The notes under the pieces are model-generated. The model worked only from the letters and a program-made list of their open reading frames with translations, ran no database searches and had not been told where the DNA came from. From Thermoplasmatota archaeon (GTDB lineage: Archaea > Thermoplasmatota > E2 > DHVEG-1 > B18-G2): a DNA stretch of 64,000 nt. The DNA is taken from contig JAPDJO010000002.1 of assembly GCA_029259115.1 (NCBI GenBank), forward strand, positions 18,737 to 82,736, read 5' to 3'. Both the position numbers and the translations under genes were made by a program. Each line of letters opens with the position of its first letter. The stretch's first letter is position 1. Of this stretch, positions 18,754 through 64,000 are shown piece after piece.

Positions 18754-18762
18754 ATTTCAAAC

Positions 18763-20418: not shown

Positions 20419-20433
20419 GTTTCTTTCACTTTC

Positions 20434-30404: not shown

Positions 30405-31169
30405 TTAATTAGAAGACTTGCTGAATTTGATAGCCTCTTCCATTTCGATTTCTCCTTTGAGAACTTTAAGTGCTAATTCTCTGGATATAGTTATTCTACC
30501 ACCGCTTAGGATCCTACTTTTTCTCTGCACTTCCTTTATTTCTCCATCGGTAAATCTTCTGTCTCCATTTCCTCTTACCGATCTACCTCTTGATTTTGCT
30601 ATCCTTATAGCAGCTACCTCGTTTCTTTCCATTCTTGAGTATCCAGTTCTCTGACTCGTTTTTGTTTCATCTACTATTTCAATTCTGATATCAACATCTC
30701 TTAAACCGTCTATGATTCTATCCCTGTAAATTCTGGCATCATGGCCTATCCTTACTATCCTCTCCTTGTCTGAAAAGTCACTCAGAATTTTTCTTACTAT
30801 TCCTAAAGCCTCATCTGTGGATGATGCACACCAGGTTCTTAGAACAGTTTCACCAGAGAGGAGGGCTATACCAGGGTACTCCCCTGGATCTATTCCTATC
30901 ACGATCTCGTCACTATTTCCATGTAAAATTTGCATAGCCCTATCCAATGCAGAATCTATGTCTCTAAAACAGTCAGCATATACGACCTTCCTTCCGCCTA
31001 TATCTTTACCCTCAGCTGAAGATGTTATAATGACACCAACCTTATGCGGTATTCTATCTATGGAGTGTAAATGAATATAATCTATGCCTCTTTCATTCAT
31101 CTTATTCATTATGTCATGTGCTAGCGAGAAATCCTTTGTGTATATCCCCACTATCTTCATCTTTCCCAC
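30405..31169 (-). CDS. Conserved archaeal protein with an RNase H-like (YqgF/RuvC-like) fold
   Basis: VIGIDPG..PGIAL and IVDETKTS motifs. Confidence 0.6.
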   Translation of the reverse strand: MGKMKIVGIYTKDFSLAHDIMNKMNERGIDYIHLHSIDRIPHKVGVIITSSAEGKDIGGRKVVYADCFRDIDSALDRAMQILHGNSDEIVIGIDPGEYPGIALLSGETVLRTWCASSTDEALGIVRKILSDFSDKERIVRIGHDARIYRDRIIDGLRDVDIRIEIVDETKTSQRTGYSRMERNEVAAIRIAKSRGRSVRGNGDRRFTDGEIKEVQRKSRILSGGRITISRELALKVLKGEIEMEEAIKFSKSSN

Positions 31170-42354: not shown

Positions 42355-42427
42355 TGGGCCCGCTGGGATTCGAACCCAAGTCTATGGCTCCCGAAGCCAC
42401 AAGGATACCAAGCTACCCCACGGGCCC
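42355..42427 (-). tRNA. tRNA-Pro (CGG), intronless, CCA not encoded
   Basis: GGGCCCG/CGGGCCC-A acceptor stem, anticodon arm GTGGC-TTCGGGA-GCCAT, T arm TTGGG-TTCGAAT-CCCAG. Confidence 0.93.
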
Positions 42428-42462
42428 CCGAAAAGAAGAAATCCCATATAAATTAAAATAAC

Positions 42463-43257
42463 TTACTTGATGAGTTTTGCAAACTCCTTGTATTTCTCCT
42501 CTAAGATCCTGGAAGCCTCTATCAGTATAGTTTTTGCATCCAGAGATCCATCTGTTTCGAACTTGAATATGTATTTACTCTCATCACCCTTTACCTCCAT
42601 CGCTCCATCTTCTGTAACTTCCATGCAAGATTTGCAAAGAGAGCATTCCTCGACATTTTTGACAACTAGCTTTCCATCTTTTTCTTCCAAGATTTTCTTT
42701 GGGCAAGCCTCTATAGCTCTCTTTCTAGATTCTTCATCAAGTTTATCCTGATTTATCTTGATTATCGGGTAATATTTGTATCCCGGAGCTACAACAGCCT
42801 GCCATTTTGCATGGTCTTTACCTCTTCCAAGCACGGCTTCGGCTTCCAAAATTAGTCTTTGCCCTTCAAACAATTCAACTATAGGTATGTTTGGATCTAC
42901 GACCTTCCACTTCTCATTTTCAGGTTGCAAGTCTCCAGAATATATTACTCCGGGTTCTTCTCTACTTAAAGTATATCTAACTGTACAGTTTGGGCAACCT
43001 TCACCTTTACATGAGCATTTATCTCGTGGAACTAGAAGTTTAAGATCGGTTGGAAGAGGAATCATACCCAATCTGTGAGCAATGATCTCATCAAACAGAG
43101 GCGAGGTATTGTCATAGAAGATTACATCTTCTATAGCTAATTTTGGAACTTCCCTTAACATAGCTCTCCTTAAAGCATTCACAAAGTAATGTGATGTATC
43201 TGATACTACTAACTTTGCATATCTCTCCTTTAATTCAACAACCTCAACCTTTACCAA
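42463..43257 (-). CDS. rpoD: DNA-directed RNA polymerase subunit D (Rpo3) with Fe-S domain
   Basis: NALRR, DEIIAHRLGMIP, GKDHAKW, CSLCKSC. Confidence 0.95.
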   Translation of the reverse strand: MVKVEVVELKERYAKLVVSDTSHYFVNALRRAMLREVPKLAIEDVIFYDNTSPLFDEIIAHRLGMIPLPTDLKLLVPRDKCSCKGEGCPNCTVRYTLSREEPGVIYSGDLQPENEKWKVVDPNIPIVELFEGQRLILEAEAVLGRGKDHAKWQAVVAPGYKYYPIIKINQDKLDEESRKRAIEACPKKILEEKDGKLVVKNVEECSLCKSCMEVTEDGAMEVKGDESKYIFKFETDGSLDAKTILIEASRILEEKYKEFAKLIK

Positions 43258-43268
43258 ATCAGATCACC

Positions 43269-43652
43269 CTAAACTCTTCTTCCTCTCTTTCCACCTTTCT
43301 TTCTGCCACCATCATGAGGTATAGGCGTTACATCTTCTATCCTTCCAACCTTCAGTCCTGCTCTAACTAAAGCTCTTATTGCAGCTTGAGCTCCTGGACC
43401 TGGGACTTTACTTTTTGTCCCTCCCGGTCCTCTTACCTTTATGTGTATCTTGTCTATCCCTTTCTCCTTCGCCATCTCTGCAACTCTCTGAGCTACAAGC
43501 ATCGCTGAATAGGGAGAACCTTCATCCTTTGCAGATTTTGTTACCATCCCACCAGAGCATCTTGCTATTGTTTCAGCTCCTGTTAAGTCTGTTATTGTGA
43601 TTATGACATTATTGAAGGAAGCGTATATGTGGGCAACTCCCCATCTTCCCAT
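43269..43652 (-). CDS. rps11: 30S ribosomal protein uS11
   Basis: [31 protein letters not shown]. Confidence 0.97.
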
Positions 43653-43653
43653 C

Positions 43654-44220
43654 CTATTCCTCCTTTACCTCAACCATTTTAGGTTTAGGAATAGTGTCAA
43701 CAGAAGGCCTAGCCGGATGAGATGGATCATATAAAGGAGAGTCGGGTGCATAATCTATATCTTTTTCCTCATCTGCTCTGACCATATAGCTTGGTACAGT
43801 TACTCTTCTTCCTCTTATGGCTATATGACCATGCACTACGAGTTGCCTTGCCTGCTTTGGAGTGGCTGCAAGACCTTTGAGATAAACCAACGTCTGTAAC
43901 CTTCTTTTAAGTATATCTTCAACAGTCAAAGCTAGACAATCATCAAGCGTTGCATCAGGTTTTACTAAATTCATTCTTATAAGGTGATTCATCAGCTGTT
44001 CGACTTGTCTTTTGTAAACAGGATCTTCGGATCCTACCTTAGCTAGTAGTTTTCTTGCTTGTGTTCTATATTTTCTCAAAATGGTTTCTGCCTTCCATAT
44101 CTCTCTCTTATTCTTTAACCCATACTTTTTCATCAGTTCGTTTTCTCTCTTTATCCTCTCCTCTTCCCATGGATGCGAAGGAGTTTCATATTTTTTCCTC
44201 AATCTCCTAGGATCCCCCAT
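43654..44220 (-). CDS. rps4: 30S ribosomal protein uS4
   Basis: MGDP...[31 protein letters not shown]. Confidence 0.97.
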
Positions 44221-44230
44221 AAAAATCCCT

Positions 44231-44698
44231 TTACTTTCTCTTTCTAGATACTCCCAATGCGAGACCTTTTCTTCCGTTTGATCTTGTCCTCTGCCCTCTA
44301 ACCGGTAAGCCTAGCTCATGTCTTATTCCTCTGTAAGCCCTTATCTTCTTTAATCTGTTGATATCTTCTCTCTTCGTTAGATCAATATCTGCACCTATAA
44401 GATGAAGATCTTTACCTGTGTAGTAGTCTTTTCTTCTGTTCATTAACCAACCCGGAGCGAACTTGTTGAGGTTTGATATGATCTCTTGGATTTTTTCTAT
44501 CTTCTCGTCAGGCAGGTTTCCTATCTTTTCAAATCTATTGACCCCTGCAGCATCAGCTATTATCGTGCTGAGATGAAAACCTATACCTTTTATCCTTGTT
44601 AGAGCGTGAACTACGCTTTTTTCTCCATTGAGATCAGTATCTGCAATTCTAACTATGTACTTGAAGTCCTGATTTTCTTGCATTTCCTGCTCAGCCAG
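44231..44698 (-). CDS. rps13: 30S ribosomal protein uS13 (start is CTG 44698 or ATG 44683)
   Basis: [30 protein letters not shown]; RBS GAGGTGA just upstream of 44698. Confidence 0.95.
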
Positions 44699-44859
44699 TT
44701 CTATCACCTCTTTCAGTATAACAGAGAGTAAGCCTAATAATAATAAAACTGGTATATAAGGATTTAGGAAAGAGAGATTTTTTGTATCACTTACCAAGTT
44801 GACATTGCTAAATCGCAAGATTTAAAAGATAAAATATTATATAAATACATGGGAGAAAA

Positions 44860-46396
44860 GTGACCGGGTGGAAGAGTAAACTATTCGTTCTGGCAATTTC
44901 TATCCTAATTATATCCGCTATACTCTCTCTGGCTATTACTTTCACTTTTACCGAGATAAAAGAAAGCACGGAGGAATTGTTAATTAAAATCGATACAGAT
45001 AGGGCACCCATAGGGATTGAACCCCTCGCTCTTAATCTTTCTGCAAGGATACTTAACGCTAAAGGAAAAGTTACCTACGAGTGGGATCTTGGGAATGGAG
45101 AAAAATCAAATAAAGAAAAAGTCACGATAACCTATGACGAGCCCGGTACATATAATTGCACTCTTACAGTTACCGATGAAATCGGCAGAAAAGCAGTAGA
45201 TAGTATAAAATAATCGTGGAAAGGAATAGACCACCTATAGTTACACTCAACATAAATAAAAAGACTATCGAGAGAAAATTCACATGGTTGAACTTTTTAG
45301 CCCTTTTACCAATACCTTTCAATCCTTATGCTTGGGCAGGAAACCAGCAGTTAACCCTAGATCGAATAGAGAAGAAAAAGGGACATTGGGCATGGGGAGA
45401 TAGTGGAATAGTCATAACCGCACAGATCAACGATCCAGAAGGAGACGAGATTGTATCATATGAATGGAGAGAGCAAACGGCAGATAAACTGGTAACAATA
45501 ACTGGAAAAACTTTGCTCCCGGTGCACAATCTCTCAGGAAATGAAAGCGTAAAGATCCCTGCTCTATATGCATGGATGATAGGCAGGCATATAGTTACAC
45601 TCACCGTTAGGGATTCGGCAGGAAATGTAGCTACTGCAGTCACAGACTATATAGTTTCTGAGAGTCAGAGAGAGACAACCATAAACATGTTAAGGATAAT
45701 GGTCCTGTTTATTCCGAGTATAATGAGCATCGTCAGAGGAACAGGAGGTTCACTTTGGAATGCTATGCCAAAGATATGAGAGAAAACATTTCTAATCATG
45801 TAGATGAGCTGTACGAAGAGGTGAGAACAAATCCGTTGCTGAACAACTTTCCGCTGATCAAGACGATCCTCTTATCGATGATAGAGAAGATTCCAAACAC
45901 TGTCGGTGTCCCCTACGAGCATCCACTTGATAAAGCTGAGCTTGTAGTATCGGAGATCCAACCGTTTAACTTTTCAACCTATGTGAACGAAAGTGGTGTA
46001 GTCGATAGAAACATAACACTAGCTAGATCATTCAACATAACAAATGTTGATACCAACTTGACGGCATTTGATATCTATTTAACACTAAGTAAGCCGTTTT
46101 CAGAAGAGAAAGGACTTCCAGAGCAACTCGAGAAGGACGGGGTAACTGTCAAAATAAAAGTTAACTCTCTTACTAAAAAACTGTCCCATCAGAGAAATTA
46201 CACAGAATGGAAGAGAAGCATGAAGATAGATGAACTACACCCTGGAGATAGGATAGAGTGTACACTTTATCTGACATTGGAAAAGGGAGTAGTCGTAGAG
46301 AAAGGTATGTACGATTGCCATCTCTATGTCTATCAAGGCAAAACTCTGCACCGCGAAGAGCTTGTAGATATTGTAACATTTAAAGTGATATTATAA
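44860..46396 (+). pseudogene. Membrane-anchored PKD-domain protein split by two -1 frameshifts
   Basis: ORFs 44860-45213, 45216-45779 and 45755-46396 join when one base is added at about 45210 (DSIK-IIVERNRPP) and at about 45772 (MPK-DMRENIS). PKD motif YEWDLGNG...TYDEPGTY. Confidence 0.7.
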
Positions 46397-46475
46397 AAAC
46401 ACGGATGATAACGAGGGCTAACATACTTCCAAAAATCAATATCAATTATATTGGAAGGTCAATCGGTTATTTCCT

Positions 46476-47870
46476 TCAAGTCGATTTGGATCTTCCAAGA
46501 ATTAAGAAGAAGGCGCTGATGTTATCGCTTTCTTCTCTACCATACACATCCTCCGCTACAACTTTTATGTCATGCCTTCCTATAAGTCTATCCCTACATA
46601 CCCATATATATGGTTCCTTTTCAGCCACATACTTGAGGTTGTTGTCTATATAGAACTTTACTGTTTTAATGTCGACTGTTCCATGAATTCTCGCGACGAC
46701 ATTTATCCTTCCCACTATGACGGTAGTCTTTAATTTTAATCTTATATACCTGCCTAATATGTAAAGCCCATTTACTGGTCTAACGATACTCACGGAAAAT
46801 GGTGGGTTCGGATTTCCTACGGTTATATTTTTGGCTATGGAACTGGTGAAACCATCATTATCTCTTACATATAACCTGACTTCATATGTTCCATTTTGTG
46901 CATACGGATGTGTTACATTTTCTCCATATGCTATGTCTCCATCACCGAAATACCATGTCCAGTTAACGATGTATCCGTCTATATCGTATGACGTACTGTA
47001 GAAGTACACTGTATACCCTGCAGAAGGATTGAGAGGCTCATAGTAAAAATCTGCGGTTGGATAAAATGGGATAATCTCAAATTCATGCGCATCTGACATA
47101 TTTCCATTTCCAGAGGTGTCGATTGCCCATATGAAGAAGTGATAGGTTCCAATTTCAGGATAGCTTAGATTTACGTAGTATATATCATAACCTTTCCTGC
47201 TGGCAGAGACATTCATTGTAGATCCATTTGGAAGTGATATATTGATATACACACCATCGACAGCCACATTATCAGTCACTCTACAGGAGATGTTAACATT
47301 TTGTCCTACATATTGAATACTCGGTATGATAACGATATTCGATATTTCTGGTTTTATATGATCTGTGATGTTACCAGATACATTAACTGTACAGTTATGA
47401 ATGATCGCTGGCACACTATACCCCTCACAAGCCAACTCAGCAGAGAGGTTTAAGTAAGCAATTCCTGCTCTTTTTGCTTTAAAACTGATGGTACAAAGTG
47501 TACCGGAAATCTTACTTTTTTCTCCATGTAGAGTGAAACAAAACATTCCGGTTAGTTCGCCTTTAGAATTATCAACAGATCCCTCAACAAAGGTGACATC
47601 ACTATACTCGCTAAAGACGTATCCTTCAGTTATATTTACAATTTCTAAGATATGTGGAGGAAAAGAAAGTTTTTCAATCTCCCATCCACTGATGTTTTCT
47701 TTAAGATCAGCGTACACTTCTACCGAGAAAATCTCGCCTATCTCAACATTTTCATATTCTGGTAGTAGAGAGATCGATGATATCTCTGTTCCATCTGCCA
47801 GAGAGTATGATGGATAGAAGGATAGAAGAATTAGCACCACAACTGTAGAAAGTACGCTTACACTTCTCAT
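46476..47870 (-). CDS. Secreted cohesin + Ig-like + PKD + C-terminal Ig-like protein (scaffoldin-like)
   Basis: Signal peptide; cohesin pattern GEIFSVEV..SGWEI..LSFPP.IL....TEG...DN.KG...GTLCTISFKA; WTWYFGDG; VKFYID...EPYIW. Confidence 0.75.
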   Translation of the reverse strand: MRSVSVLSTVVVLILLSFYPSYSLADGTEISSISLLPEYENVEIGEIFSVEVYADLKENISGWEIEKLSFPPHILEIVNITEGYVFSEYSDVTFVEGSVDNSKGELTGMFCFTLHGEKSKISGTLCTISFKAKRAGIAYLNLSAELACEGYSVPAIIHNCTVNVSGNITDHIKPEISNIVIIPSIQYVGQNVNISCRVTDNVAVDGVYINISLPNGSTMNVSASRKGYDIYYVNLSYPEIGTYHFFIWAIDTSGNGNMSDAHEFEIIPFYPTADFYYEPLNPSAGYTVYFYSTSYDIDGYIVNWTWYFGDGDIAYGENVTHPYAQNGTYEVRLYVRDNDGFTSSIAKNITVGNPNPPFSVSIVRPVNGLYILGRYIRLKLKTTVIVGRINVVARIHGTVDIKTVKFYIDNNLKYVAEKEPYIWVCRDRLIGRHDIKVVAEDVYGREESDNISAFFLILGRSKST

Positions 47871-49162
47871 TCTATCACCAAATCTGGGTATGTTTCTCCA
47901 TAGTGTGAGGTTACTAAAGTTATATCCTTGATATCTATCTCACCGTCAGGATATGGCAGATTCATATCCTGCGGTATCCATCTAGGAGGACCGGTCTCTC
48001 CATAATGCCCGGTGACATTTGTTATATCCTTGATATCTATCTCACCACTCATATCCAAGTCGTACCTTGGATATATGTAGAAAGTTAAGTGCGAACTTTC
48101 GATGGAGTTATGGGATGTATCTTCGACTATGATCTTGAAGGTGTAAACACCTATATCTCCATAACTTGTATTGAGATAATATAACCCATTTGTGTAATAT
48201 TCCATGGATACATTCCAGATGATGGAATTAGGCCCATGTATTTCGATGGTAACATTTTCTACCCCTATATTGTCAGAAACAGAAACAGATATGTTAAAAG
48301 GATCACCACTATATTGCCTCAAACGCTCCAGTTGTATATTATGTATGATTGGCAAATCGTTATCCTTTATAGAAATTGTCATTGTATCGCTCCTATTCCA
48401 TTTACCATACTCATCTACAGCAGATATGAAGTAATAAAGTGGTAGCAAAGAGTTTGGTAGTTCATCTATCGTGTACGTCCATGTTCCATTTTGAAGTTGT
48501 TCCATCGATTCGTTAAGATGATTATGGGATGATCCAAACCAATATTCAACCCAAACACCAGATACACTGTCCATATCTGTTACATTTGCATAGAAAGTGA
48601 AACTATCTCCTGTGAAGCCGATTTCAGGCGAGAGGTCGACTATCTTTGGTCCGTTGTTTATCATGACAGTTACATTCCCATAGAATGACTCGCAGGGTAC
48701 AGTCTCACCGTTATATGCTAATTCGACGTGAAGGCCTATCATGCTAACTCCGATATCGAGGGCTGTGAAATTTAGAATACAAAGCGTTCCTTCTCCAATC
48801 GCTCCTTCCCCTTGTATCGTGTAACAGAAACAACCAGTTAAGGTACCCTCCTCATTATCTATGTTTCCAGGATTAAATGATGTTGTACCCACACTGGAGA
48901 GTAGGTCACCCTCTGTGACAGAATTCAATCTTAACACACGAGGAGAAAAATTAAGGAATTCGATTTCCCAACCACTTACTTGATTTACCAGATTTGCTTC
49001 AATCGATATAGTGATATATTCTCCTTTGTAGCAAGTTATATTACAGGGACTAACTTCAACAGTAGAGATGCTATCCTCGGATAGTGCAACTGTGATTAAA
49101 CCAGCTAAAGATGAAAGAAGCAACAATATCCCAACCACTTCTACACCAAGTCCTTCCCTCAT
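47867..49162 (-). CDS. Secreted cohesin + Ig-like + dockerin protein (adaptor scaffoldin-like)
   Basis: Cohesin pattern SGWEI..LNFSP..L..VTEG...IDNEEG...GTLCILNFTA; C-terminal duplicated DxxxxGEIDIKDIT.V..HYGE; RBS before 49162. Confidence 0.78.
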   Translation of the reverse strand: MREGLGVEVVGILLLLSSLAGLITVALSEDSISTVEVSPCNITCYKGEYITISIEANLVNQVSGWEIEFLNFSPRVLRLNSVTEGDLLSSVGTTSFNPGNIDNEEGTLTGCFCYTIQGEGAIGEGTLCILNFTALDIGVSMIGLHVELAYNGETVPCESFYGNVTVMINNGPKIVDLSPEIGFTGDSFTFYANVTDMDSVSGVWVEYWFGSSHNHLNESMEQLQNGTWTYTIDELPNSLLPLYYFISAVDEYGKWNRSDTMTISIKDNDLPIIHNIQLERLRQYSGDPFNISVSVSDNIGVENVTIEIHGPNSIIWNVSMEYYTNGLYYLNTSYGDIGVYTFKIIVEDTSHNSIESSHLTFYIYPRYDLDMSGEIDIKDITNVTGHYGETGPPRWIPQDMNLPYPDGEIDIKDITLVTSHYGETYPDLVIE

Positions 49163-49220
49163 TTTTTCACCCTCTAATTTTTTCATATTCTATTTTTAAT
49201 ATTTTTTGTACAAATCTTTT

Positions 49221-52200
49221 CTAACCATAGTTTTCACCATAATGTGCAGTGACCGCAGTAATATCTTTTATATCAATTTCACCATCTTTGTTTATGTCCT
49301 CTCTAATCCAACCAGGATCTCCAGTCTCACCATAATGTGCAGTGACCGCAGTAATATCTTTTATATCAATTTCATTATCCGTGTTGATATCCCAATCAGC
49401 TGGTTTTGTTCTGAAACACAATGTTCTATTCACCCAGTTCTTACCATCTGTAATATTCACAGACCACCAATACCATGTTAGCCAGTTATTCATAAGATCA
49501 CAGTTGGTGGTATATGTTCCGTTACTTCCAGAGAATGTTTTTATAGTCTGCCATCTACCTGTTGCATTTGTTCTAAATATGACCGTAAGTTGATCTCCTT
49601 CTGGATCAGAAACAGTGACGTTAAGGATTGGATAGATGCCGTTCCTAGGATCGATTGTTACGTTTACTTTACCATTTTCAGGATGAGTATGATCAATAGA
49701 GGGTTTTTCGTTTGTGGAGATGGTAAAGTCCCTCTCTGCTGGAGTAGGATCTATATTTCCGTCCTTGTCTTTCGTTCTTACTTTGAAAACATAGCTCCCA
49801 TCTGGAAGATCATAATATGATGTGGTAGTTTCCTTACTCCAAACTGACCAAGTTGTGTCGTACCCTTCCAATTTATAGGAGAATAGCAATTGATCCACTG
49901 GGGTGTTATCATCTGACCCACTCCATGAGAAAGTTACATCGTTGTAATCTATGACGCCAGAGGGTCCTTCCATTATGATGGTCTCCGGTGGTTCACTTTC
50001 GCCTGTGATTGTTATGGATTTCGACACACTATCTTCTAAACCATATTCATCTATAATTCTCAGTGTGATGGTATAGGTTCCTGGAGAAGAGAATTTATGT
50101 TCAGCATAGCAGTCCCATTTACCATCGATGATTTCTCCATCATTTCCTCCTATCTCGTCATGAGTAACACTACCAAATCCTTCTTCAAAATCCCACCATG
50201 CTATTAATCCATCTGTTACGACATTCCCTTCCAGATTTTGTTGGATTTCATCTTCGGTAAGAATTCTGTTGTAAATCCTGATAAAATCTATCTTCCCAGG
50301 AAAAGCATGATAACCCCAACCCATATAGATGTTTTTATCTGTTATTTTGATTTTTTTGCCATTACCTGGTTTGCTACCTACGAGATTACCATTTAGGTAG
50401 ATTCTTATCCCGTCAGTGGAACTGTATTCTCCCACGACATGTATCCACTTCCTAAAGAGTGCATTGCTTGGATTTGGATAATAGTTAATGTGTGTGTGAC
50501 TACCGTCTGGATGCCAAACTAAGAACTGAAGATACCAGGGATAATAAAGTCTCCAAGAATCCCATTTGTATATTGGTGAGCGATGATCTCTTGCAAAGTG
50601 TATCCTATCTATATATACTGGTACTTGACCATAGTAGTATATCTTCACTCTGTAATTATGATTCAATTGAGAGAAGAAAGTTGGATGATGGTGTATTTGC
50701 CATCCATACCAATATTGACTTATGTTTTTCTCATCAAAATCGGAAGTCTTATAAATGTCCTCCAGTACCTTCTTTCCTGTATTTAAATCCCATACCTCAA
50801 TCTTGATGATATTTACAGGATCTTGAGGCTTATACCCTATTCTTAATCTTACAAATAGACCTGTTTTACCATAGTGCAGATCCGGATCTCCAGAGAAGTC
50901 ATATATTGATATGTATCCCGTTCCATTTTGTGGAACTGCTCCTCTGACCAGTTTGTTTATGCTACTATCATAATAATTGAAACCTATGTTCTTATCAGTA
51001 TCTTCTGCCTCTACGTAGGTGCTCCTTCCACCATCGTACCATATCTTTGCCTCTACCGTTATGTTGTCATTTATGTTGAATGCAGGTGAGTTACTTACTT
51101 TTACTCTATCGTCATTACCATCAAATTCGAGGAATTTTCTACCGTAACTTGTGGTTCCATCTCCAAAGTCCCATGTCCAGTTTGTTATTTTCGAGTCATT
51201 GTCTATGCTAGTATCGATGAATACGATCTTCTGCGAAACGTTTGCAATTGAGGGATCGAAAGAAAAGTTTGCTATAGGTGGATCGTTGATAACAAAGGTG
51301 ATCTCGGCTGGGCTTATCTCGATGTTTCCTGCTGAATCCTTTGCTCTAACTTTAAAAGTATAGATCCCAGATGGAAGATCCTCATAGGTTACAGAGGTTG
51401 AACTTGTCCAAGATGACCAATATATATCATGTCCATAGAGAATGTAGGAATACTTCAAGTTAGAAGCTGAGGAGATATCATCTTCACCGATCCAACTGAA
51501 GTGCACAGTATGCTGAGTGGTTACATTTTCTGGCGACTCTATTATTTCGGTATTAGGTGGGGTAATATCCACATATACGTATGCGGATAGATTCTCTATC
51601 TCCCTAGCGATCTTCCTTCTCGCTTCATATATTTTTAGAGGATCTTTGCACCAACTTCTTTTGCCGGAATATATCATGCTAACTGTATCATTTAACACTT
51701 GCCAAGCGTGTTGCTTCATTGATGCAGGCGCATCAGATATGTCTATGTAATGTTGAAGAGTCCATAGATATTCATAGTCATCGATACCCTCTCTCACCAT
51801 TTCCCATCTCACTGAAGAAATTCCTCCTTCATAGCATGGTTTAGGTGATATTCCTTCCTTGAAAGGTGGATACAACAAGAACCCTTCACCTGCACATCCC
51901 GGACAATATTTTTCCCAATAGGAATGTCGCGGATCAGTCCATGGATTTTGAGTCCATGAGGTTGTTGAGTAGTAGAGGTTTCCTTCCAATCCATACTTCC
52001 AAAGCAACCAACCAAATACTCTAGGTGCGGTGTATGGTTGTTTTATGTAGTAGTTTGGATGCCCACTCTGGGGAGGATTCCCTATGCAGACATAGGTCCA
52101 TCCCTCTGCATCAGAATCATTTTTTATATCTTGTAAAACCTTACTACTTACTACCCTCAGATCCGGAATCCAGATATCGACATAATCTTTCAAAATAGGA

Positions 52201-53942
52201 TAAACTTCGTTCTCCCATATGTAGTCGTTCACGCCAATAAGCGTTTGTGCTATTTTTATGTTAGGATTGGCAGATTTTAGTAGAATAGAAAAATTTCTTA
52301 TCTCGAGAATATTCTTGTAACCTTCATCGGGACCGTATAAGTAGGGTTCATCCTTGATAAAATAGTATGCCTTGTCTAACCAACCTCTCTCCTCCAGATG
52401 GTTAGATACATTCTGCCAAAATGCTATGATCGATCTGTTATAGCCTTCTGATCCTTTTGGAAATCCACAAAATGAGTCTGGAATTCCTTTGCCCATCATG
52501 AATGATGTAAAACCATAGTCGTCTAGGTACATGCTAGCAAGCTTATCTGCTTTTGTGTAGTTTATATTGAAATGAACATTTCCATCCTCGACAGTCCAAC
52601 TATACTTGATTGCGTTGTAATACCAAGGTTCTATAAAGCCAGGGGCGACCTTGTGAGATCTGTAGATCTTATAATACTCATCTCTGACTCTTTCGTATTG
52701 ATCTGATTTTATGTTATGGAATTTCAAGATCTTCCATTTATTTAGACCAAACGCGGTTCTACAGTGCGACTCTCTCGAGAGAGTAAAGCTCCATACAGTG
52801 AGATTCAGAGGAATCGTTAATGATCCATCACTATATTCTATAGTGACATTCCCGTGATAGAATCCCGCATCAATGTCATCTGGGACAAAGATAGTTACCC
52901 ATATACTTCTCGATATGTTTTTAGAAAGATTGAGAGGAGAAAATTCTGGTAGCGGATCTGGATACTGTTCGTAGTATGCAGGAGTGTATTCGACGGTACG
53001 TATAGATATCGTTCCATTGTCTATCCTGCACCCAGTAACAGCATTTATTAGATCACTCACCCTGATTTCCAAGTTTGATATATTTCTGTAGGGCCTTACC
53101 CCAATTTGGAAAGATTCGTATTCATTCTTTGCACATTCAATCCTAATAGATGAACTTACATTTACTGGAGGGATGCTGACTTTAAATATTTTCTCAGTGG
53201 AAGGAGAAAACCATACGACCAGATCAGGGTTTGTAGCCAGCTTATAACCAACTGATGTTGGAATTTCCATAGAGATATTTTGCCATATTCTAGATAAGGA
53301 TAGACTTTTTCTCATGATACTGTTGTTTGTTAGATATCCCTCTTTAGTGACAAATAGGTTATAGTGTTTCAGTCCCTGCTGAACATAATCACGGACAACG
53401 ATTTTGTAATAACCTGTAGAGTTAGTAGATGTAACTAACTCAATCTCGGCGGATGAATTATATAATACCGCGTAAACAGTAGCATTTTGTATAGGAGATC
53501 CGCTTGTTTTGTCTCTAACGTACCCGCATATTATTCCACCTTTTTCAAGAGAGAAGTTGAACCATTTTACTGTGAATGGATATGTTGGTATAAGTTCCCC
53601 TATAAACACGGTTTGAGAAACATAACCTTTTTTGGATGCTGTGAGTTTACAGTCCGATAAGGGATATGTTAGAGAAAACATATAGAAACCAGTAGAGTCT
53701 GTAGTACGTGTTAAGGTAGTGTAATTTCCATATTCATTATACCCACATAGTGTTATTTCAGCCCCTTCGATGACATAACCTGTTTCACTATCGTAAACAT
53801 AACCTTTAACATAGATCATAGAGGGAGGAGTCCAACCATCGACTGGTGCAAACTGATAATATGGAGATATCATTAGAAGAATTGCTGTAAAGAGACTGAC
53901 AAGACTTAATGTGATTCTCCTTTGATACATCTTATTCAACAT
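49221..53942 (-). CDS. Large secreted modular glycoside hydrolase (GH123-like/DUF4091) with CarboxypepD_reg-like, Y_Y_Y, PKD, LamG and dockerin modules
   Basis: Signal peptide, NEYESFQI, YPDPL, FIKDEP, GEGFLLYP, SSVRWEMVREGIDDYEYL; C-terminal tandem D.N.D.EIDIKDITAVTAHYGE. Confidence 0.8.
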   Translation of the reverse strand: MLNKMYQRRITLSLVSLFTAILLMISPYYQFAPVDGWTPPSMIYVKGYVYDSETGYVIEGAEITLCGYNEYGNYTTLTRTTDSTGFYMFSLTYPLSDCKLTASKKGYVSQTVFIGELIPTYPFTVKWFNFSLEKGGIICGYVRDKTSGSPIQNATVYAVLYNSSAEIELVTSTNSTGYYKIVVRDYVQQGLKHYNLFVTKEGYLTNNSIMRKSLSLSRIWQNISMEIPTSVGYKLATNPDLVVWFSPSTEKIFKVSIPPVNVSSSIRIECAKNEYESFQIGVRPYRNISNLEIRVSDLINAVTGCRIDNGTISIRTVEYTPAYYEQYPDPLPEFSPLNLSKNISRSIWVTIFVPDDIDAGFYHGNVTIEYSDGSLTIPLNLTVWSFTLSRESHCRTAFGLNKWKILKFHNIKSDQYERVRDEYYKIYRSHKVAPGFIEPWYYNAIKYSWTVEDGNVHFNINYTKADKLASMYLDDYGFTSFMMGKGIPDSFCGFPKGSEGYNRSIIAFWQNVSNHLEERGWLDKAYYFIKDEPYLYGPDEGYKNILEIRNFSILLKSANPNIKIAQTLIGVNDYIWENEVYPILKDYVDIWIPDLRVVSSKVLQDIKNDSDAEGWTYVCIGNPPQSGHPNYYIKQPYTAPRVFGWLLWKYGLEGNLYYSTTSWTQNPWTDPRHSYWEKYCPGCAGEGFLLYPPFKEGISPKPCYEGGISSVRWEMVREGIDDYEYLWTLQHYIDISDAPASMKQHAWQVLNDTVSMIYSGKRSWCKDPLKIYEARRKIAREIENLSAYVYVDITPPNTEIIESPENVTTQHTVHFSWIGEDDISSASNLKYSYILYGHDIYWSSWTSSTSVTYEDLPSGIYTFKVRAKDSAGNIEISPAEITFVINDPPIANFSFDPSIANVSQKIVFIDTSIDNDSKITNWTWDFGDGTTSYGRKFLEFDGNDDRVKVSNSPAFNINDNITVEAKIWYDGGRSTYVEAEDTDKNIGFNYYDSSINKLVRGAVPQNGTGYISIYDFSGDPDLHYGKTGLFVRLRIGYKPQDPVNIIKIEVWDLNTGKKVLEDIYKTSDFDEKNISQYWYGWQIHHHPTFFSQLNHNYRVKIYYYGQVPVYIDRIHFARDHRSPIYKWDSWRLYYPWYLQFLVWHPDGSHTHINYYPNPSNALFRKWIHVVGEYSSTDGIRIYLNGNLVGSKPGNGKKIKITDKNIYMGWGYHAFPGKIDFIRIYNRILTEDEIQQNLEGNVVTDGLIAWWDFEEGFGSVTHDEIGGNDGEIIDGKWDCYAEHKFSSPGTYTITLRIIDEYGLEDSVSKSITITGESEPPETIIMEGPSGVIDYNDVTFSWSGSDDNTPVDQLLFSYKLEGYDTTWSVWSKETTTSYYDLPDGSYVFKVRTKDKDGNIDPTPAERDFTISTNEKPSIDHTHPENGKVNVTIDPRNGIYPILNVTVSDPEGDQLTVIFRTNATGRWQTIKTFSGSNGTYTTNCDLMNNWLTWYWWSVNITDGKNWVNRTLCFRTKPADWDINTDNEIDIKDITAVTAHYGETGDPGWIREDINKDGEIDIKDITAVTAHYGENYG
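49234..49374. repeat. Perfect 48-bp direct repeat encoding the two dockerin halves
   Basis: 49234-49281 is identical to 49327-49374. Confidence 0.95.
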
Positions 53943-54101
53943 CTCCCCCTTGATAGTTTATAAATTTTTTATGACAGACATATCCACCCTTATTTCAATA
54001 AGGAATATAATATTCTAAAGCTTATATATTTAACGTACGATGTCTCCTCTCCTCAGACCACAATCAATATAATCCTAAAATCTATCTCAACTTTGATATC
54101 G

Positions 54102-55403
54102 ATGCAAGGACAATCGTGGACAAAGATAAAAGAGATTTTGGAAGGAAATAAGACAGGGGAAGAAGTCAACATCCGAGGATGGATATACAGGAAGAGAAGT
54201 AGCGGAGGAATAATCTTCATACTTGTAAGAGATTCAACAGGCGTAATTCAGGCAACTATCAAAAAAGGAGACATTCCGGAAGAGGAATTCGAAAAAGCAG
54301 AAAGAGCTTTGATAGAGTCTTCCATAAAGATAAAGGGGATAGTCAAAGAAGACAAGCGTGCGCCAGGCGGCTACGAGATAAAGGTGAATAAATTCGAAGT
54401 TGTTAATTTTGCTGAGCCTTTCCCTATAACAGAGGACCACAGTGAAGAGTTTCTCCTAGATGTGAGACATCTATGGCTTCGCTCAAGGAAGCTCACAGAA
54501 GTAATGAAACTGAAGGCAAAGGTTCTTCGTCTCATTAGGGAGTGGTTTGATGAGAATGACTTTTATGAGGTCACACCAAGTGTTATAACTCTAAATGCAG
54601 CGGAAGGCGGCGCAACTGTATTCTCATTTGATTATTTCGGTCAGAAAGCGTTTTTGAGCCAAACTGCTCAGATGTATCTCGAAGCCCTCATCTTTTCCCT
54701 AGAAAGGGTCTGGAGTTTAACACCTTCATTCAGAGCAGAGAAATCGAGAACAAGGAAGCATCTCACAGAGTACTGGCATCTTGAGGCAGAGGAAGCGTGG
54801 GTGGATAATGAAGGCAATATGAAGATCCAAGAAGAGCTTGTGAGCTATGTTTGTCAAAATATTGCAAAGGTGGCAAAGGATGAGCTTGAATATCTGGGAA
54901 GGGATGTAGAAGATCTAAAGGTTATCGAACCCCCTTTCAAAAGAATAAAATACAAGGATGCAATCAAAAAACTGCAAGACAAAGGTTTTGATATAGAATG
55001 GGGCGATGATTTTGGTGCTCCTCACGAGAGAGCGCTTGTCGAGGGAGAAGATAAGCCAATATTCGTCACTCATTTTCCAGTAGAATCTAAAGCATTTTAC
55101 ATGAAGATATCTCCAGATGGAAAGACGGTTGAATGCGCTGATATGCTCGCTCCGGAAGGATATGGAGAGTTAATAGGAGGATCAGAAAGATCTGAGGATA
55201 TAGACTCGATGATTGCTCGTTTAAAGGCGGATGGAGCAAAGATAGAAAACTATGAATGGTATTTTGATCTTCGAAGATATGGAAGTGTACCTCATTCAGG
55301 TTTTGGTTTGGGATTGGAGAGATTGGTTATGTGGATTGCAAAGTTAGATCATATAAGAGATGCCATTCCATTTCCCAGAACGGTAACCAGAGTATATCCT
55401 TAG
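54102..55403 (+). CDS. asnS: Asparaginyl-tRNA synthetase
   Basis: RHLWLRS, FRAEKSRTRKHLTEYW, GELIGGSER, WYFDLRRYGSVPHSGFGLGLER. Confidence 0.93.
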   Translation: MQGQSWTKIKEILEGNKTGEEVNIRGWIYRKRSSGGIIFILVRDSTGVIQATIKKGDIPEEEFEKAERALIESSIKIKGIVKEDKRAPGGYEIKVNKFEVVNFAEPFPITEDHSEEFLLDVRHLWLRSRKLTEVMKLKAKVLRLIREWFDENDFYEVTPSVITLNAAEGGATVFSFDYFGQKAFLSQTAQMYLEALIFSLERVWSLTPSFRAEKSRTRKHLTEYWHLEAEEAWVDNEGNMKIQEELVSYVCQNIAKVAKDELEYLGRDVEDLKVIEPPFKRIKYKDAIKKLQDKGFDIEWGDDFGAPHERALVEGEDKPIFVTHFPVESKAFYMKISPDGKTVECADMLAPEGYGELIGGSERSEDIDSMIARLKADGAKIENYEWYFDLRRYGSVPHSGFGLGLERLVMWIAKLDHIRDAIPFPRTVTRVYP

Positions 55404-55412
55404 GTGATAAAG

Positions 55413-55688
55413 ATGAGGGTAGAGGCTCACGTCCTGATATCTGGAAAGGTGCAGGGGGTATGGTTTAGAGCTAATACTAAAGAGAAGGCCAGACAGCTGA
55501 ATATAAAAGGATGGGTTAGGAATCTTCCTGACGGTAGAGTAGAGGCTGTATTCCAGGGAGAGAAAGAGATGGTCGAGGAGATGATAAAGTGGTGTTACAA
55601 AGGTCCTCCTCTTGCTGAAGTTGAGAATGTTGAGGTGGAATGGAAGGAGCCAGAAGAAGAGTTTGAAGATTTCTCAATCTTATACTGA
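55413..55688 (+). CDS. acyP: Acylphosphatase
   Basis: GKVQGVWFR, GWVRNLPDGRVEA, GPPLA. Confidence 0.95.
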   Translation: MRVEAHVLISGKVQGVWFRANTKEKARQLNIKGWVRNLPDGRVEAVFQGEKEMVEEMIKWCYKGPPLAEVENVEVEWKEPEEEFEDFSILY

Positions 55689-60850: not shown

Positions 60851-63800
60851 TTACTTTCTTCTGGTCTTTCTCCCGCTTTTCCTCATTGAATAACCAACAC
60901 CAGCTATCACTATGATAGCTATGATTATGATTGCAATCACTATCAATACAGACATATCTAAAAGCTTTCTAGCATGTGGGTACACGCTTGCTCCATATAG
61001 CATGTGTCCATCCACGTAGAGATCTTCACTTCCATCCCATTTCAATGGCTGCACATCCTCTCTCTCCCAATGATTAGCATCGCTATATTCTGTGCTTGGG
61101 ACCCATACTCTTAGATCTGGGTCACCAAAAAGTTCAACATTTTCAAATTTGTCCCACCACCATCGATGAACAAGAACTTCTGGACCTGTAGCTCTAATAC
61201 CTCTTTCATAAGCCTGTCCCACAGTATCGCCCATTGCTATTCGTTTTACAAACATCTGTATCCATACCGCACACCAGTCTGTCGTTGTCCACGGATCTAC
61301 AATCTGAAATACTGATCCATGTCTCATCCAAGACATGTGCAGTAAAGTACCGGCAGGTAAGCAGGATGTAGCAGGAATTCCACAAGAGTGTAGATTCTTT
61401 AGATTATCATCGAATTTATAACCTGTATTTGTCCAGCTATCTACAGTTGGTGTTCCGCTGATGCTCGATAGAAGGATTTTACCATCGTGGTAGGTTATTA
61501 TAGGCAAACCCTGAGACAGAGATTTAAAAGGATGTAATAGTCTATCTCTGTGAATCATAAAACCGTTTATTGCCCAAACCTCAAATACCATTGATACACC
61601 AGGTATAGATCCGATAATTCTTGAAGCAAGAGTTCTCTGAAAATTAGATACAGAGGCATCCGGATTCTCTGTGCATCCCTTTTCTGGAAACGGATTGAAT
61701 TTAATCAAGGGTTTTGTGAATTTGAGTAGGTTTTCATTGTTTAATCCTGTTCCCACATAGAATGCTATCCAACGAGGATATAGCCTTATATGTCCAGGTC
61801 TAAACATTACTACTTCATATTCTCTCCATGGATTTGGCTCTTTGACATAGGGGCTACGAGGATCCCACATAGCGAGTATTCCACTGTTTCCTTGATATCC
61901 ATGATTGTTGACTATCCATAGAATAACACCTCTATTCAAATTCTCTACTACTGCTGAGAAATTCGTTGAAAATGCACATCCATATCCAGCTCTTTTTGCA
62001 TAAATCGGTATAACTTCAGATTCACTAAGATCTGGATAATATGCACCTTTCTTCCCATGACATATATCCTGATCTATGGGATCAGGAGATGGTGTAAAAT
62101 ACGGAACTATACCATCTGCTCTGGTATATCTGAAATTCCAATGTTTCCATGCTACTTCATTGAATCTGTACATATATGTGCCAAGAGAGTTCATGATTGG
62201 ATAGACGAATGTTTCTTCCTGAGAGGGTTTGACTATAGTTAAGGTTGATCCGTAAGGCTCTTTTAGTCTTCCTCCTATAAGCTTATTGACACTCTTGCTG
62301 CCATTTATGAGTTTGATTCCATTTGGATTGAGGGCAGGATTTTCAAATATGAGGGCTGGGTAGAAGACATTTCTACAAATTGCATAGGCAGTATCAACTG
62401 GTGAACCCCAAAATCTCCCCGGATATGCAGCTCCAGTGAAAGATCTATCCCAAGGCATCCCTATATCATATTGATCTGCGACCGTAATTATGGTCTCCCT
62501 CAGTTGATCTTTCCCTTCCTCAAGCCTTCCTAGATCACATTTTTCAAGAAATCTATAGACTTCTTTCCCAGATGTATACATACTTCCAGACGATGGATGA
62601 ACCTCTATCCTCTGTGAAGAAAATTTCTTCCAGAACTCAGTATGGTATACAACAGCCTGTGACAGTTCAGGATGTTCATCTACTATTAGCACAGGAGATG
62701 CATGATGGGCAGCTATATAACTTGCAGGTCCAACAAATAATGCTCCCTTAAATTCGCCGGCAGGCCTTAATTCCTCTGCGTACCAATAGCTCCATGGATC
62801 AATTGTTGTAAATACTACAGTATTTTCTCCACCGGAAAGATTCCTTATATCCCTGTAAAGATTTTTGGCATCTCTATACTCCTTTGATATGCTTGGAAGT
62901 TGGTCCTTTACTTTACCTTTTAGATGACCTCCAATATTCAACAGATATATTTCTTTTACTCCGAGTTTTCTCAAGACTTCTTTAGTACACGAGGGTATGT
63001 GGTCAGGAGAGATATATAGCAGAGGTATATTTAACATACTTGAAAGAACAGCTCCATTTGCAGCAGATGTGAAACTATCTCCTTCCTCTTTGGATATATT
63101 CTGATGCCAACTGTATTCGAATACCACCTGCAATGGCTGAGAAATATTATCTAACGAATAAACACATATTGTATAATTTTCTCCTTCGTTGCATTCCCCA
63201 AGCTGATCTAGATGAATGCTTTCTTCCTGCTTCTTTTCTATTTCGCCACTTATAATTTCTTCCATAGGAATACTTGAGCATATTTCGGTGCCGGCCGGGT
63301 CAACTACTGTGAATCCTAATCTGACATTCGGATTATTCCACTTTAGTGTGAAGTTTACATCTCTACATCCAAAAGGTGTAGCTGGAAGTTTGAATGTTAC
63401 ACCTGGATAAAGATAGATATCAACATCTCCCTCATTTTTAATCGCTTTTGCCATCTCCTTGATGCTCAATGGCATAAACTGTTCTTCCTTTTCATCAAGA
63501 TTTGGAGGGTAAAAACCCTTCCTTGCAACAGCTGTAACACTTACCTGCCATTTTCCGTAATTATGAATAAAAGATGCTAATACTTCTTTATAGCCAATCC
63601 GCTCGGCGTGATCTCTATAATCATGTATGGTACAATCGAGCATTCCTATATTCAAATCATAAAGTTGTAAATCATAGTCTATGTTTGTAGGCCAACTTAA
63701 TTTTGCTACAATGTATTTATAGATCTTGTCTTTTATGTCGAAGGTTTGGTATGTTGCTCCAGCACCAATAGAGGGGAGCTCTATTTTCATATGTTTATGT

Positions 63801-64000
63801 TTGATTGAGGCAGGAGAAAACGCTCTTATGATTTTACCTTTTTCTGCTTTGTTCGGATTCTCAAAATCATCTTTAATAACAGCCACAACAGCCTTATCAG
63901 AATAACTCCAGTCATTCAGAGCTAGCTTTGCAGCAATCTCATAAGAATTGTTTCCTCTAATCTCAACCACATCTCTAGCTGGCCATTGTTTAACCTTGCT
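60851..64000 (-). CDS. Large C-terminally membrane-anchored surface protein with a gingipain (C25)-like domain and CWB2-like repeats (5' end off window)
   Basis: Frame is open to 64000. NNHG, ATSCL and LFGDPDL motifs; GNNSYEIAAKLA and GAVLSSMLNIPLLYI..IP repeats; TM followed by a basic tail. Confidence 0.6.
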   Translation of the reverse strand, partial: SKVKQWPARDVVEIRGNNSYEIAAKLALNDWSYSDKAVVAVIKDDFENPNKAEKGKIIRAFSPASIKHKHMKIELPSIGAGATYQTFDIKDKIYKYIVAKLSWPTNIDYDLQLYDLNIGMLDCTIHDYRDHAERIGYKEVLASFIHNYGKWQVSVTAVARKGFYPPNLDEKEEQFMPLSIKEMAKAIKNEGDVDIYLYPGVTFKLPATPFGCRDVNFTLKWNNPNVRLGFTVVDPAGTEICSSIPMEEIISGEIEKKQEESIHLDQLGECNEGENYTICVYSLDNISQPLQVVFEYSWHQNISKEEGDSFTSAANGAVLSSMLNIPLLYISPDHIPSCTKEVLRKLGVKEIYLLNIGGHLKGKVKDQLPSISKEYRDAKNLYRDIRNLSGGENTVVFTTIDPWSYWYAEELRPAGEFKGALFVGPASYIAAHHASPVLIVDEHPELSQAVVYHTEFWKKFSSQRIEVHPSSGSMYTSGKEVYRFLEKCDLGRLEEGKDQLRETIITVADQYDIGMPWDRSFTGAAYPGRFWGSPVDTAYAICRNVFYPALIFENPALNPNGIKLINGSKSVNKLIGGRLKEPYGSTLTIVKPSQEETFVYPIMNSLGTYMYRFNEVAWKHWNFRYTRADGIVPYFTPSPDPIDQDICHGKKGAYYPDLSESEVIPIYAKRAGYGCAFSTNFSAVVENLNRGVILWIVNNHGYQGNSGILAMWDPRSPYVKEPNPWREYEVVMFRPGHIRLYPRWIAFYVGTGLNNENLLKFTKPLIKFNPFPEKGCTENPDASVSNFQRTLASRIIGSIPGVSMVFEVWAINGFMIHRDRLLHPFKSLSQGLPIITYHDGKILLSSISGTPTVDSWTNTGYKFDDNLKNLHSCGIPATSCLPAGTLLHMSWMRHGSVFQIVDPWTTTDWCAVWIQMFVKRIAMGDTVGQAYERGIRATGPEVLVHRWWWDKFENVELFGDPDLRVWVPSTEYSDANHWEREDVQPLKWDGSEDLYVDGHMLYGASVYPHARKLLDMSVLIVIAIIIIAIIVIAGVGYSMRKSGRKTRRK

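Follow-up and report, generated by a model that had tools for sequence, protein, structure and literature searches.

A three-gene cohesin-dockerin cassette in a Thermoplasmata archaeon, probably a small relative of the bacterial cellulosome aimed at amino-sugar glycans

Introduction

Can an archaeon hold an enzyme at its surface by a short, ordered chain of cohesins and dockerins? Archaeal examples of both modules have been on record since 1999, mostly as isolated occurrences and with an unclear purpose. The question is raised by a cassette of three genes, here named P0001, P0002 and P0003, in a stretch of 64,000 nucleotides from a Thermoplasmatota archaeon (assembly GCA_029259115.1, contig JAPDJO010000002.1, positions 18,737 to 82,736). 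This whole stretch is referred to as the window. A preliminary description had read the cassette as a complete complex of a dockerin-tagged enzyme, an adaptor and a scaffold.

We analyzed the three proteins, the window's own genome (here named G000, in which the window spans positions 18737-82736 of contig C2), related genomes and public sequencing runs. G000 comprises 1.40 Mb in 94 contigs with a G+C content of ~39%, a completeness of 98.7% and a contamination of 5.5%. A methanogenic host was rejected, since no match to MCR alpha was found in G000. Based on our analysis we regard it as likely that the genes form a non-cellulosomal cohesin-dockerin tethering cassette of a marine-sediment/hydrothermal-vent Thermoplasmata archaeon. 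It is probably a small archaeal relative of the bacterial cellulosome that is aimed at amino-sugar glycans.

Composition of the cassette

The three genes are consistently orientated on the minus strand, as previously described. Direct reading of the sequence confirmed a gap of 34 bases between P0001 and P0002 and an overlap of P0002 and P0003 at ATGA (Table 1). The location between the rps13 operon and asnS was correct with regard to both flanks; an additional, frameshifted PKD gene was found on the S13 side. All three proteins, which had been called secreted, begin with an N-terminal hydrophobic segment. That of P0003 looks like a cleavable signal peptide, whereas P0001 and P0002 may have either a signal peptide or an anchor at this position.

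The cargo enzyme P0001

The glycoside hydrolase family 123 (GH123) region of P0001 consists of an N-terminal beta-sandwich (residues ~262-369) and a catalytic region (~493-726) including D531-E532. Both parts exceeded the Pfam cut-offs, with 87.5 bits for GH123_cat (cut-off 23.1; 90.6 bits in the genome search of G000) and 32.1 bits for Glyco_hydro_123_N_2 (cut-off 27). The earlier assignment to DUF4091/GH123 with a KDEP motif was therefore upheld; in the translation, KDEP covers residues 530-533 and SSVRWEMVREGIDDYEYL residues 709-726. Ahead of the GH123 part, the hydrophobic segment is followed by two CarboxypepD_reg-like domains. Behind it are located, in this order, a Y_Y_Y domain, a PKD domain, a region without a domain call, a Laminin_G_3/ConA-like domain (1140-1234), a second PKD domain, a second Y_Y_Y domain, an immunoglobulin (Ig)-like domain and the dockerin (~1516-1573). 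The corresponding Pfam matches were CarboxypepD_reg, two Y_Y_Y, PKD and Laminin_G_3.

The best solved relatives by sequence were 8k2j (2.9e-20), 8k2f (8.6e-17) and 8k2h (3.1e-13), all of them beta-N-acetylgalactosaminidases or hexosaminidases; the classical GH123 entries 5l7r and 5l7v followed with 1.4e-4. Identity to known GH123 enzymes was ~25-30%. The dockerin is also present in P0010 (912 aa), a partial, near-identical copy (96%) of P0001 that comes from another assembly. Apart from this copy the nearest homologs, among them a Planctomycetia protein, were 21-29% identical, and a dockerin of the P0001 type was present in none of the seven distant homologs retrieved.

In the sections of Sumida et al. 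2024 (PMC11087588) that concern the family, GH123 is enlarged into subfamilies and a consecutive Asp-Glu pair is described as catalytic. Nine invariant residues are given there for NgaLy (D95, W115, D327, E328, Y392, G427, W431, Y466 and R478). We mapped these residues by sequence alignment alone, using 8k2j and the seven distant homologs. Eight of the nine are kept in P0001 (D329, W348, D531, E532, Y617, G654, Y691 and R712), and D531-E532 within KDEP aligns with ADEP of 8k2j and with DEP of six of the seven homologs. The GH123 matches together with the retained residues suggest that P0001 is very probably an active retaining glycosidase of the GH123 family. Among characterized enzymes it appears most like the beta-N-acetylgalactosaminidases that release oligosaccharides or monosaccharides.

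The cohesin domains of P0002 and P0003

The N-terminal regions of P0002 and P0003 shared 31% identity over 240 aa (E 6e-31). AlphaFold2 predicted all-beta domains for both, with a pLDDT of 96.2 and a pTM of 0.89 for P0002 and with 94.5 and 0.88 for P0003. The first Foldseek match of both models was the non-cellulosomal Archaeoglobus fulgidus cohesin 2xdh (E 3.7e-10 for P0002 and 1.2e-9 for P0003; TM 0.72/0.75), and among the matches listed all were cohesins. The models thus confirm the cohesin fold, a nine-stranded beta-sandwich of the jelly-roll type, that had been predicted for both N-terminal domains.

Profile searches gave the same picture. A profile of nine cohesin-type domains (A1) found 20,368 representatives at E<=0.001 in a library of 1.84 billion proteins, many of them with several repeats. 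Compared with the PDB sequences, all 18 profile matches were cohesins (best 3l8q, 5.6e-12), and 19 of the 20 sequences aligned with the window cohesin (alignment A2) match Pfam Cohesin. To search the open reading frames (ORFs) of G000, a hidden Markov model (HMM) of five relatives' domains was preferred, since A2 contains whole multidomain proteins and a sequence 99% identical to P0003 (P0148). This HMM recognized P0002 (1.4e-15), P0003 (4.4e-14) and one protein each of contigs C69 (1.1e-10) and C75 (3.9e-6), and no other ORF of G000 at E<=10. A language-model look-alike search with P0003 may serve as a lead only: all 30 named matches were cohesin clusters, with a score of 0.92. The single-sequence search of the PDB with P0002 returned only urease matches at chance level.

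The cohesin of P0002 is followed by two Ig-like domains and a dockerin. Translation possibly starts at Met9, after GAGGGTGA, which would result in a protein of 431 aa. In P0003 the cohesin is followed by Ig-like and PKD domains (Pfam PKD, 62 bits), as already described; it has neither a dockerin nor a C-terminal membrane segment.

The dockerins of P0001 and P0002

Dockerins consist of two tandem segments of ~22 residues with an EF-hand-like loop and a helix, the calcium loop carrying D/N at positions 1, 3, 5, 9 and 12. The sequences of both P0001 and P0002 end in such a pair. The two C-terminal segments of P0001, DINTDNEIDIKDITAVTAHYGE and DINKDGEIDIKDITAVTAHYGE, are near-identical, and the underlying DNA repeats of 66 nt each are 91% identical (repeat family D1). 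In P0002, DLDMSGEIDIKD is accompanied by a second calcium loop with an insertion of 3 residues.

A dockerin HMM built from six relatives outside G000 matched P0001 with 5.5e-20 and P0002 with 2.7e-13, which agrees with the dockerins previously assigned to both. When a profile of nine relatives (A3) was compared with the PDB, solved dockerins ranked first (2y3n_B with 4.2e-6, then 2b59_B, 3kcp_A and 4u3s_B). The Clostridium perfringens GH84 dockerin 2jnk/2ozn was matched as well, and EF-hand proteins ranked lower.

Gene order in related genomes

The taxonomic order was searched in 118 genomes; a further genome, G118, lies outside that set. In the sister family f2 a dockerin was found in 44 of 108 genomes and a cohesin in 45. 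Within the order search, 60 of 94 dockerin matches had a cohesin at a distance of at most 5 kb on the same contig (31 of 44 genomes).

The most informative counterpart was found in G118, a Thermoplasmatales genome of 1.3 Mb whose asnS is 52% identical to that of the window. At the beginning of contig C14 of this genome, a P0001 ortholog is represented by its last 143 residues, which are 67% identical and include an intact dockerin. The next gene encodes a cohesin-Ig-dockerin protein of 426 aa, 47% identical to P0002, and the third a cohesin-cadherin-PKD-Ig protein of 576 aa, the start of which overlaps the preceding stop in the same ATGA manner as in the window. Here the cassette is followed by purA, so the neighbourhood differs from that of the window. 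The first 398 residues of the P0001 ortholog are located at the end of contig C52 and comprise CarboxypepD_reg, Flg_new_2 and the N-terminal domain of GH123, the latter with 47.5 bits (GH123_N_2) and 42.3 bits, both above the cut-offs. The ortholog is thus assembled at both ends only, and its catalytic middle is absent from the assembly. Orthologous cohesins of G000 and G118 share 47% and 41% identity versus 29-38% for the paralogous ones.

In G067, a genome in a single contig, a dockerin protein of 313 aa, a cohesin-Ig-dockerin protein of 622 aa and a cohesin-PKD protein of 388 aa follow each other on one strand. In G113 a dockerin-GHL15 protein comes after two proteins of the cohesin-dockerin type. 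Additionally, a metagenome contig of 4158 bp (L046), from which P0010 derives, encodes 912 residues of the enzyme up to its C-terminus (96%) and then an adaptor matching 432 of 433 residues of P0002. No locus was obtained with P0006 as a query against the genome contigs. The order of a dockerin-tagged cargo, a cohesin-dockerin protein and a cohesin protein is conserved across Thermoplasmata. Linkage in relatives had been named beforehand as a check of the cassette, and it was found with an orthologous GH123 cargo (G118), with another cargo (G067) and on the metagenome contig.

Among closer relatives the modules are rare. Four genomes of the same genus and three of the same family, 70-96% complete, were searched; a dockerin of the window type was present in none of the seven and a cohesin, as a weak match, in one. 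The GH123 region, used as a protein query, was not found in 40 relatives.

The cassette is strain-variable

The preliminary description had not dealt with variation between strains. In a genome of the same genus (G004) the S13 operon, the PKD gene and asnS are consecutive, with a spacer of 55 bp at the site of the cassette. Public sequencing data contain the cassette stretch itself in 20 listed runs, which belong to 13 studies and are for the most part metagenomes of hydrothermal vents and marine sediments. We compared the contigs of four runs over positions 42400-55500. In sample S4, position 46390 is linked to 54116 by a DNA contig with a depth of 32 as well as by contigs from two RNA libraries. 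The same DNA run also contains cassette contigs that are identical to the window, with a depth of ~3-5. The occurrence of both forms together indicates presence and absence between co-occurring strains. The cassette is accessory and strain-variable, and it is absent in the dominant strain of S4. Run X1 shows a similar depth (~3-10) for the cassette and for its flanks; it is possibly the window's own source and is therefore not independent.

The cassette-less contigs also bear on the adjacent PKD gene. In the window it is split into three reading frames (117 + 187 + 213 aa), and its ortholog in G004 is an intact, membrane-anchored protein of 517 aa. Exactly at the frame changes, the cassette-less contigs have two additional bases, the first behind 45209 and the second behind 45769/45770. 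The gene is hence intact in the cassette-less strains and broken or mis-assembled in that of the window, where it is either a pseudogene of the cassette-bearing strain or an assembly error.

The G+C content of the cassette (0.38-0.39) is at the level of the genome. Neither flanking direct repeats nor an adjacent tRNA were found, the nearest being tRNA-Pro at 42355-42427, beyond the S13 operon; no integrase was present among the window ORFs, the search being confined to the ORF list. An apparent joint from 46928 to 51148 was rejected as an artefact, since it lies on a repeat of the PKD motif (family D4) and one of its sides is only 21 letters long. In one sample, contigs of two metatranscriptome libraries matched 46551-46838, 49047-49356, 50114-50318 and 50246-50545 exactly, covering parts of all three genes. 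This gives a weak hint that the cassette is transcribed, since such libraries can hold DNA and contigs cannot show transcripts; uncovered parts carry no information.

Further cohesins and dockerins of the genome

In total, profiles built for this clade detected four cohesins and three dockerins in G000. Those outside the cassette belong to a second locus, likewise new compared with the preliminary description. It is distributed over contigs C69 (L019) and C75 (L020), which share one gene where they overlap and differ there in a single residue. The locus encodes a secreted protein of 381 aa, which ends in a dockerin and whose N-terminal domain was not recognised, as well as a truncated cohesin protein and a membrane protein whose C-terminal tail is winged-helix-like. 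On C75, a protein of 198 aa carries a hydrophobic segment directly before its cohesin (Pfam Cohesin, 48 bits). The N-terminal part of the 381-aa protein had no usable match in the ESM Atlas. P0001 is the sole dockerin-tagged protein of G000 with a recognisable enzyme domain.

Larger proteins were seen in a relative of the order. Two open frames of 5176 and 2057 aa (G053, contigs C16 and C47) showed alternating dockerin and cohesin matches, and multi-cohesin, scaffoldin-like proteins therefore exist in this archaeal order.

A model of the assembly and its substrate

In the proposed model all three proteins would be exported. P0001 would be the cargo, a multidomain glycosidase with lectin-like and Ig-like modules and a dockerin of the calcium type; P0002 would be the adaptor, combining a cohesin and spacers with a dockerin that differs slightly in subtype; and P0003 would provide a terminal cohesin on a PKD/Ig stalk. 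The dockerin of P0001 would bind the cohesin of P0002 and the dockerin of P0002 that of P0003, resulting in a short chain whose extended stalk would keep a single enzyme on the surface of the cell or close to it. The chain would be attached to the cell, for which the C75 cohesin behind its membrane segment could act as an alternative anchor.

Two separate binding specificities would be required for such an order. Within the clade of G000 and G118, a RWIxQD linker together with an insertion of 3-4 residues in the second loop was present in five of five adaptor dockerins versus none of four cargo dockerins. These features and the closeness of the orthologous cohesins lend modest support to two specificities.

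With regard to the substrate, beta-linked GalNAc in glycoproteins, glycolipid-like glycans or exopolymers may be attacked, by analogy to the characterized enzymes of the family. A presumed benefit to the cell could be sought in its metabolism: an aldehyde:ferredoxin oxidoreductase encoded in the window fits a fermentative, peptide-using lifestyle, and it may be speculated that deglycosylation exposes proteins in such a setting.

Evaluation of the model and of alternatives

A number of observations weigh against the model. The cohesin and dockerin assignments fell just short in the general Pfam searches. Pfam Cohesin (PF00963, cut-off 24.1) reached 21.3 bits on P0002 (23.7 for the isolated domain) and gave no match on P0003 at E<=0.01. 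Dockerin_1 (PF00404) reached 19.1 bits on P0001 with a cut-off of 22.9; in a six-frame search of G000, P0001 scored 22.2 bits, or 27.7 with neighbours in frame, and the dockerin of P0002 had no Pfam match. At E<=0.01 Pfam Cohesin was also missing on the cohesin-Ig-dockerin proteins P0004, P0005, P0007 and L024:529-1809. As the Pfam models remain just under threshold for this clade, archaeal systems in metagenome-assembled genomes are probably under-annotated.

As to the chain, we infer which dockerin binds which cohesin. The dockerins of P0001 and P0002 are 65% identical and may share one specificity, in which case no ordered chain would exist; in G067 no such differentiation of adaptor and cargo dockerins was found. 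A complex prediction for the cohesin of P0002 (A2) with the dockerin of P0001 (A3) scored 0.11 versus a mark of 0.32, with the controls not folded, and speaks neither for nor against binding. In P0003 no membrane anchor, S-layer module or sortase-type signal was evident. The earlier term "scaffold" is consequently too strong for a protein with one cohesin and no recognisable cell anchor, and "complete complex" overstates what G000 encodes: with four cohesins, three dockerins and a single enzyme that is dockerin-tagged, there is no multi-enzyme machine. The distribution is narrow, since the cassette was found in none of the four genomes of the same genus and GH123_cat in one of 197 genomes of the class, G000 itself.

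The enzyme deviates at one of the nine invariant positions. Tyr658 (GNLYY) takes the place of NgaLy W431, where six of the seven homologs have Trp and one has Arg. As W431 contacts the substrate, activity or specificity may differ. Furthermore, neither a NagB-type deaminase (PF01182) nor a NagA above the cut-off was found in G000, with its completeness of 98.7%. Simple GalNAc scavenging is therefore not favoured, and the product may not follow the textbook catabolic route. Of the amino-sugar glycan target proposed earlier, the GH123 family stands; the substrate class is conjectural, given the identity of ~25-30%, Tyr658 and the missing NagA/NagB.

Two other explanations have to be considered. 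The modules may be real and yet form no ordered chain: the dockerins would share one specificity and bind either cohesin or those of the second locus, the C75 cohesin could be the true cell anchor, and P0002 could associate with itself head to tail. The similarity of the two dockerins, in which most helix positions have the same residues, fits this explanation, and so do the near-identical repeats of P0001, as they occur in dual-binding dockerins. Two further cohesins and one further dockerin protein are available on C69/C75, among them the cohesin directly behind a hydrophobic segment, and 51 of the 150 best cohesin representatives carry this dockerin type as well. However, the loop insertion and RWIxQD are conserved within the clade in adaptor dockerins and not in those of the cargo, G000 and G118 both keep the two cohesin types distinct, and the gene order is conserved. 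We therefore consider an assembly without order to be unlikely.

The cassette could also be a device for adhesion or surface organisation, in which GH123 binds or remodels glycans of the own envelope or of cell contacts and does not serve feeding. Here the lack of canonical amino-sugar catabolism in G000 and Tyr in place of Trp at an invariant, substrate-contacting position would find an explanation, and the many PKD, Ig, Y_Y_Y and lectin-like modules as well as the cadherin-like domain of the third G118 protein would be in keeping with it. In Chadwick et al. 2022 on anaerobic methanotrophic (ANME) archaea (PMC9012536), archaeal cohesin/dockerin proteins are discussed as possible devices of the surface and of cell contact. 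Nevertheless, the Asp-Glu pair and most of the other invariant residues are kept, and another dockerin cargo, GHL15 in a relative (G113), is glycosidase-like as well. A mainly adhesive role seems to us very improbable, and the tethering of an active enzyme is the reading that we prefer.

Starting from the tethering cassette, a more far-reaching proposal can be made. The first gene encodes GH123 in G000 and G118, an unrecognised domain in G067 and GHL15 in G113. The locus might thus be a portable surface-display cassette with exchangeable cargo on a strain-variable island, in which two dockerin specificities enforce a chain of three tiers. We put this forward as a tentative idea that is somewhat doubtful at present. 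If true, it would be an archaeal counterpart of the bacterial adaptor-scaffoldin hierarchy, by which new extracellular activities are gained one enzyme at a time.

Features of the locus and of the window

The features of the locus are compiled in Table 1. The divergent intergenic region upstream of P0001 contains an A/T-rich TTTATAA box ~25 nt ahead of GGGGGAG-ATG; these elements represent a putative promoter and a putative ribosome-binding site.

Table 1. Position of the cassette, its domains and its flanking features in the window
Feature	Position	Strand	Remarks
Cassette stretch skipped in other strains	46391-54115		7725 bases; 69 other letters instead (sample S4)
P0001	49221-53942	-	1573 aa; GH123 cargo with C-terminal dockerin
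P0001 dockerin	49224-49415	-	Two near-identical calcium-loop/helix repeats, DINTDNEIDIKD and DINKDGEIDIKD
P0002	47867-49186	-	439 aa; cohesin, two Ig-like, dockerin
P0002 domains	47867-49186	-	Hydrophobic segment; cohesin ~38-175; two Ig-like; dockerin ~370-434
P0003	46476-47870	-	464 aa; cohesin, Ig, PKD, Ig
P0003 domains	46476-47870	-	Signal-peptide-like start; cohesin ~27-165; Ig-like; PKD 284-346; Ig-like (Big_7-like)
Divergent intergenic region upstream of P0001	53943-54092	-	Sequence read directly
RpoD/Rpb3-S11-S4-S13 operon	42463-44818	-	Flank of the cassette
PKD gene, frameshifted, ortholog of a 517-aa protein	44860-46396	+	Between S13 operon and cassette
asnS, class II Asn/Asp-type tRNA synthetase	54093-55403	+	Other flank of the cassette

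Three other regions of the minus strand attracted attention. Two genes of T2SSE-type ATPases and a gene of a T2SSF-type membrane protein are arranged in a row at 16978-22080, which resembles an assembly locus for type IV pili or archaellum-like structures. An ORF of 695 aa (31157-33244) combines a PAP2-superfamily membrane phosphatase (~92-243) with a complete archaeal CCA-adding enzyme and would be an unusual fusion, unless two genes are read together. An ORF of 1039 aa (60851-63970), open at the end of the window and possibly longer, had no Pfam or NCBIfam match.

Comparison with known systems

The phrase "archaeal cellulosome" did not occur in the open-access papers that a search for it listed. 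By their titles and abstracts, open-access articles that combine cohesin or dockerin with Thermoplasmata were only gut/rumen or survey papers. Chadwick et al. 2022 (PMC9012536), with reference to Bayer 1999, Peer 2009 and Haimovitz 2008, describe the binding between archaeal pairs as specific. They present the archaea surveyed as being without multi-cohesin scaffoldins, and ANME archaea as having many cohesin/dockerin proteins, often with substrate-binding proteins as cargo.

The locus resembles the system of A. fulgidus (2xdh) in being archaeal, with single cohesins and with cohesin and dockerin in neighbouring or in the same proteins; according to Chadwick et al. 2022, binding was verified there by Bayer 1999 and Haimovitz 2008. 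It differs in its three-gene cassette, the large glycoside hydrolase cargo and the separate adaptor, as well as in the mesophile-like, low-GC Thermoplasmata genome; identity to 2xdh is 14-17%.

The GH123 enzymes of Groups 1-4 (Sumida et al. 2024; NgaDssm 8k2j, NgaCa 8k2f and the archaeal NgaBa) share with P0001 the beta-sandwich, the DUF4091 barrel and the DE motif. Unlike those enzymes, P0001 has ~1000 aa of extra modules, a dockerin and Tyr for the invariant Trp.

Cohesin-dockerin binding for non-cellulosic, partly amino-sugar glycans is also found in the Ruminococcus bromii amylosome, the predicted Limousia mucinolysome and the GH84 proteins of C. perfringens, all of which are bacterial and multi-enzyme, unlike the locus described here. 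Structures of C. perfringens were among our matches (cohesin 2jh2 and 2w1n, dockerin 2jnk/2ozn); we take these to be the GH84 cohesin/dockerin system, in agreement with the PDB titles. Amylosome and predicted mucinolysome are named as bacterial assemblies for substrates other than cellulose in the mucinolysome study (PMC12997984), where GH123 is listed among the enzymes without dockerins. GH123 and dockerin are mentioned together in six open-access papers.

The locus offers a compact, testable case with one identifiable enzyme, one adaptor, one terminal cohesin and a natural presence/absence between strains. It could help to address ordered chains in archaea, the role of GH123 in anoxic marine sediments and vents, and the spread of such cassettes.

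With the adaptor and anchor systems of bacterial cellulosomes (Acetivibrio cellulolyticus ScaA/ScaB, Ruminococcus flavefaciens ScaC) and with minimal systems it shares the proposed logic of a dockerin-cohesin chain and the clustering of the genes, and the best PDB sequence matches of the window cohesin profile were type II cohesins of ScaB. In contrast to bacterial cellulosomes, there is one cohesin per protein and one enzyme with a GH123 cargo, and the Pfam results included no CBM3, no SLH/sortase anchor and no cellulases. The combination of a multi-cohesin scaffoldin for many plant-cell-wall enzymes, a cellulose-binding module and a wall anchor, which defines a cellulosome strictly, does not occur here. 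The locus is a real, modest archaeal cohesin-dockerin enzyme tether and not a strict cellulosome.

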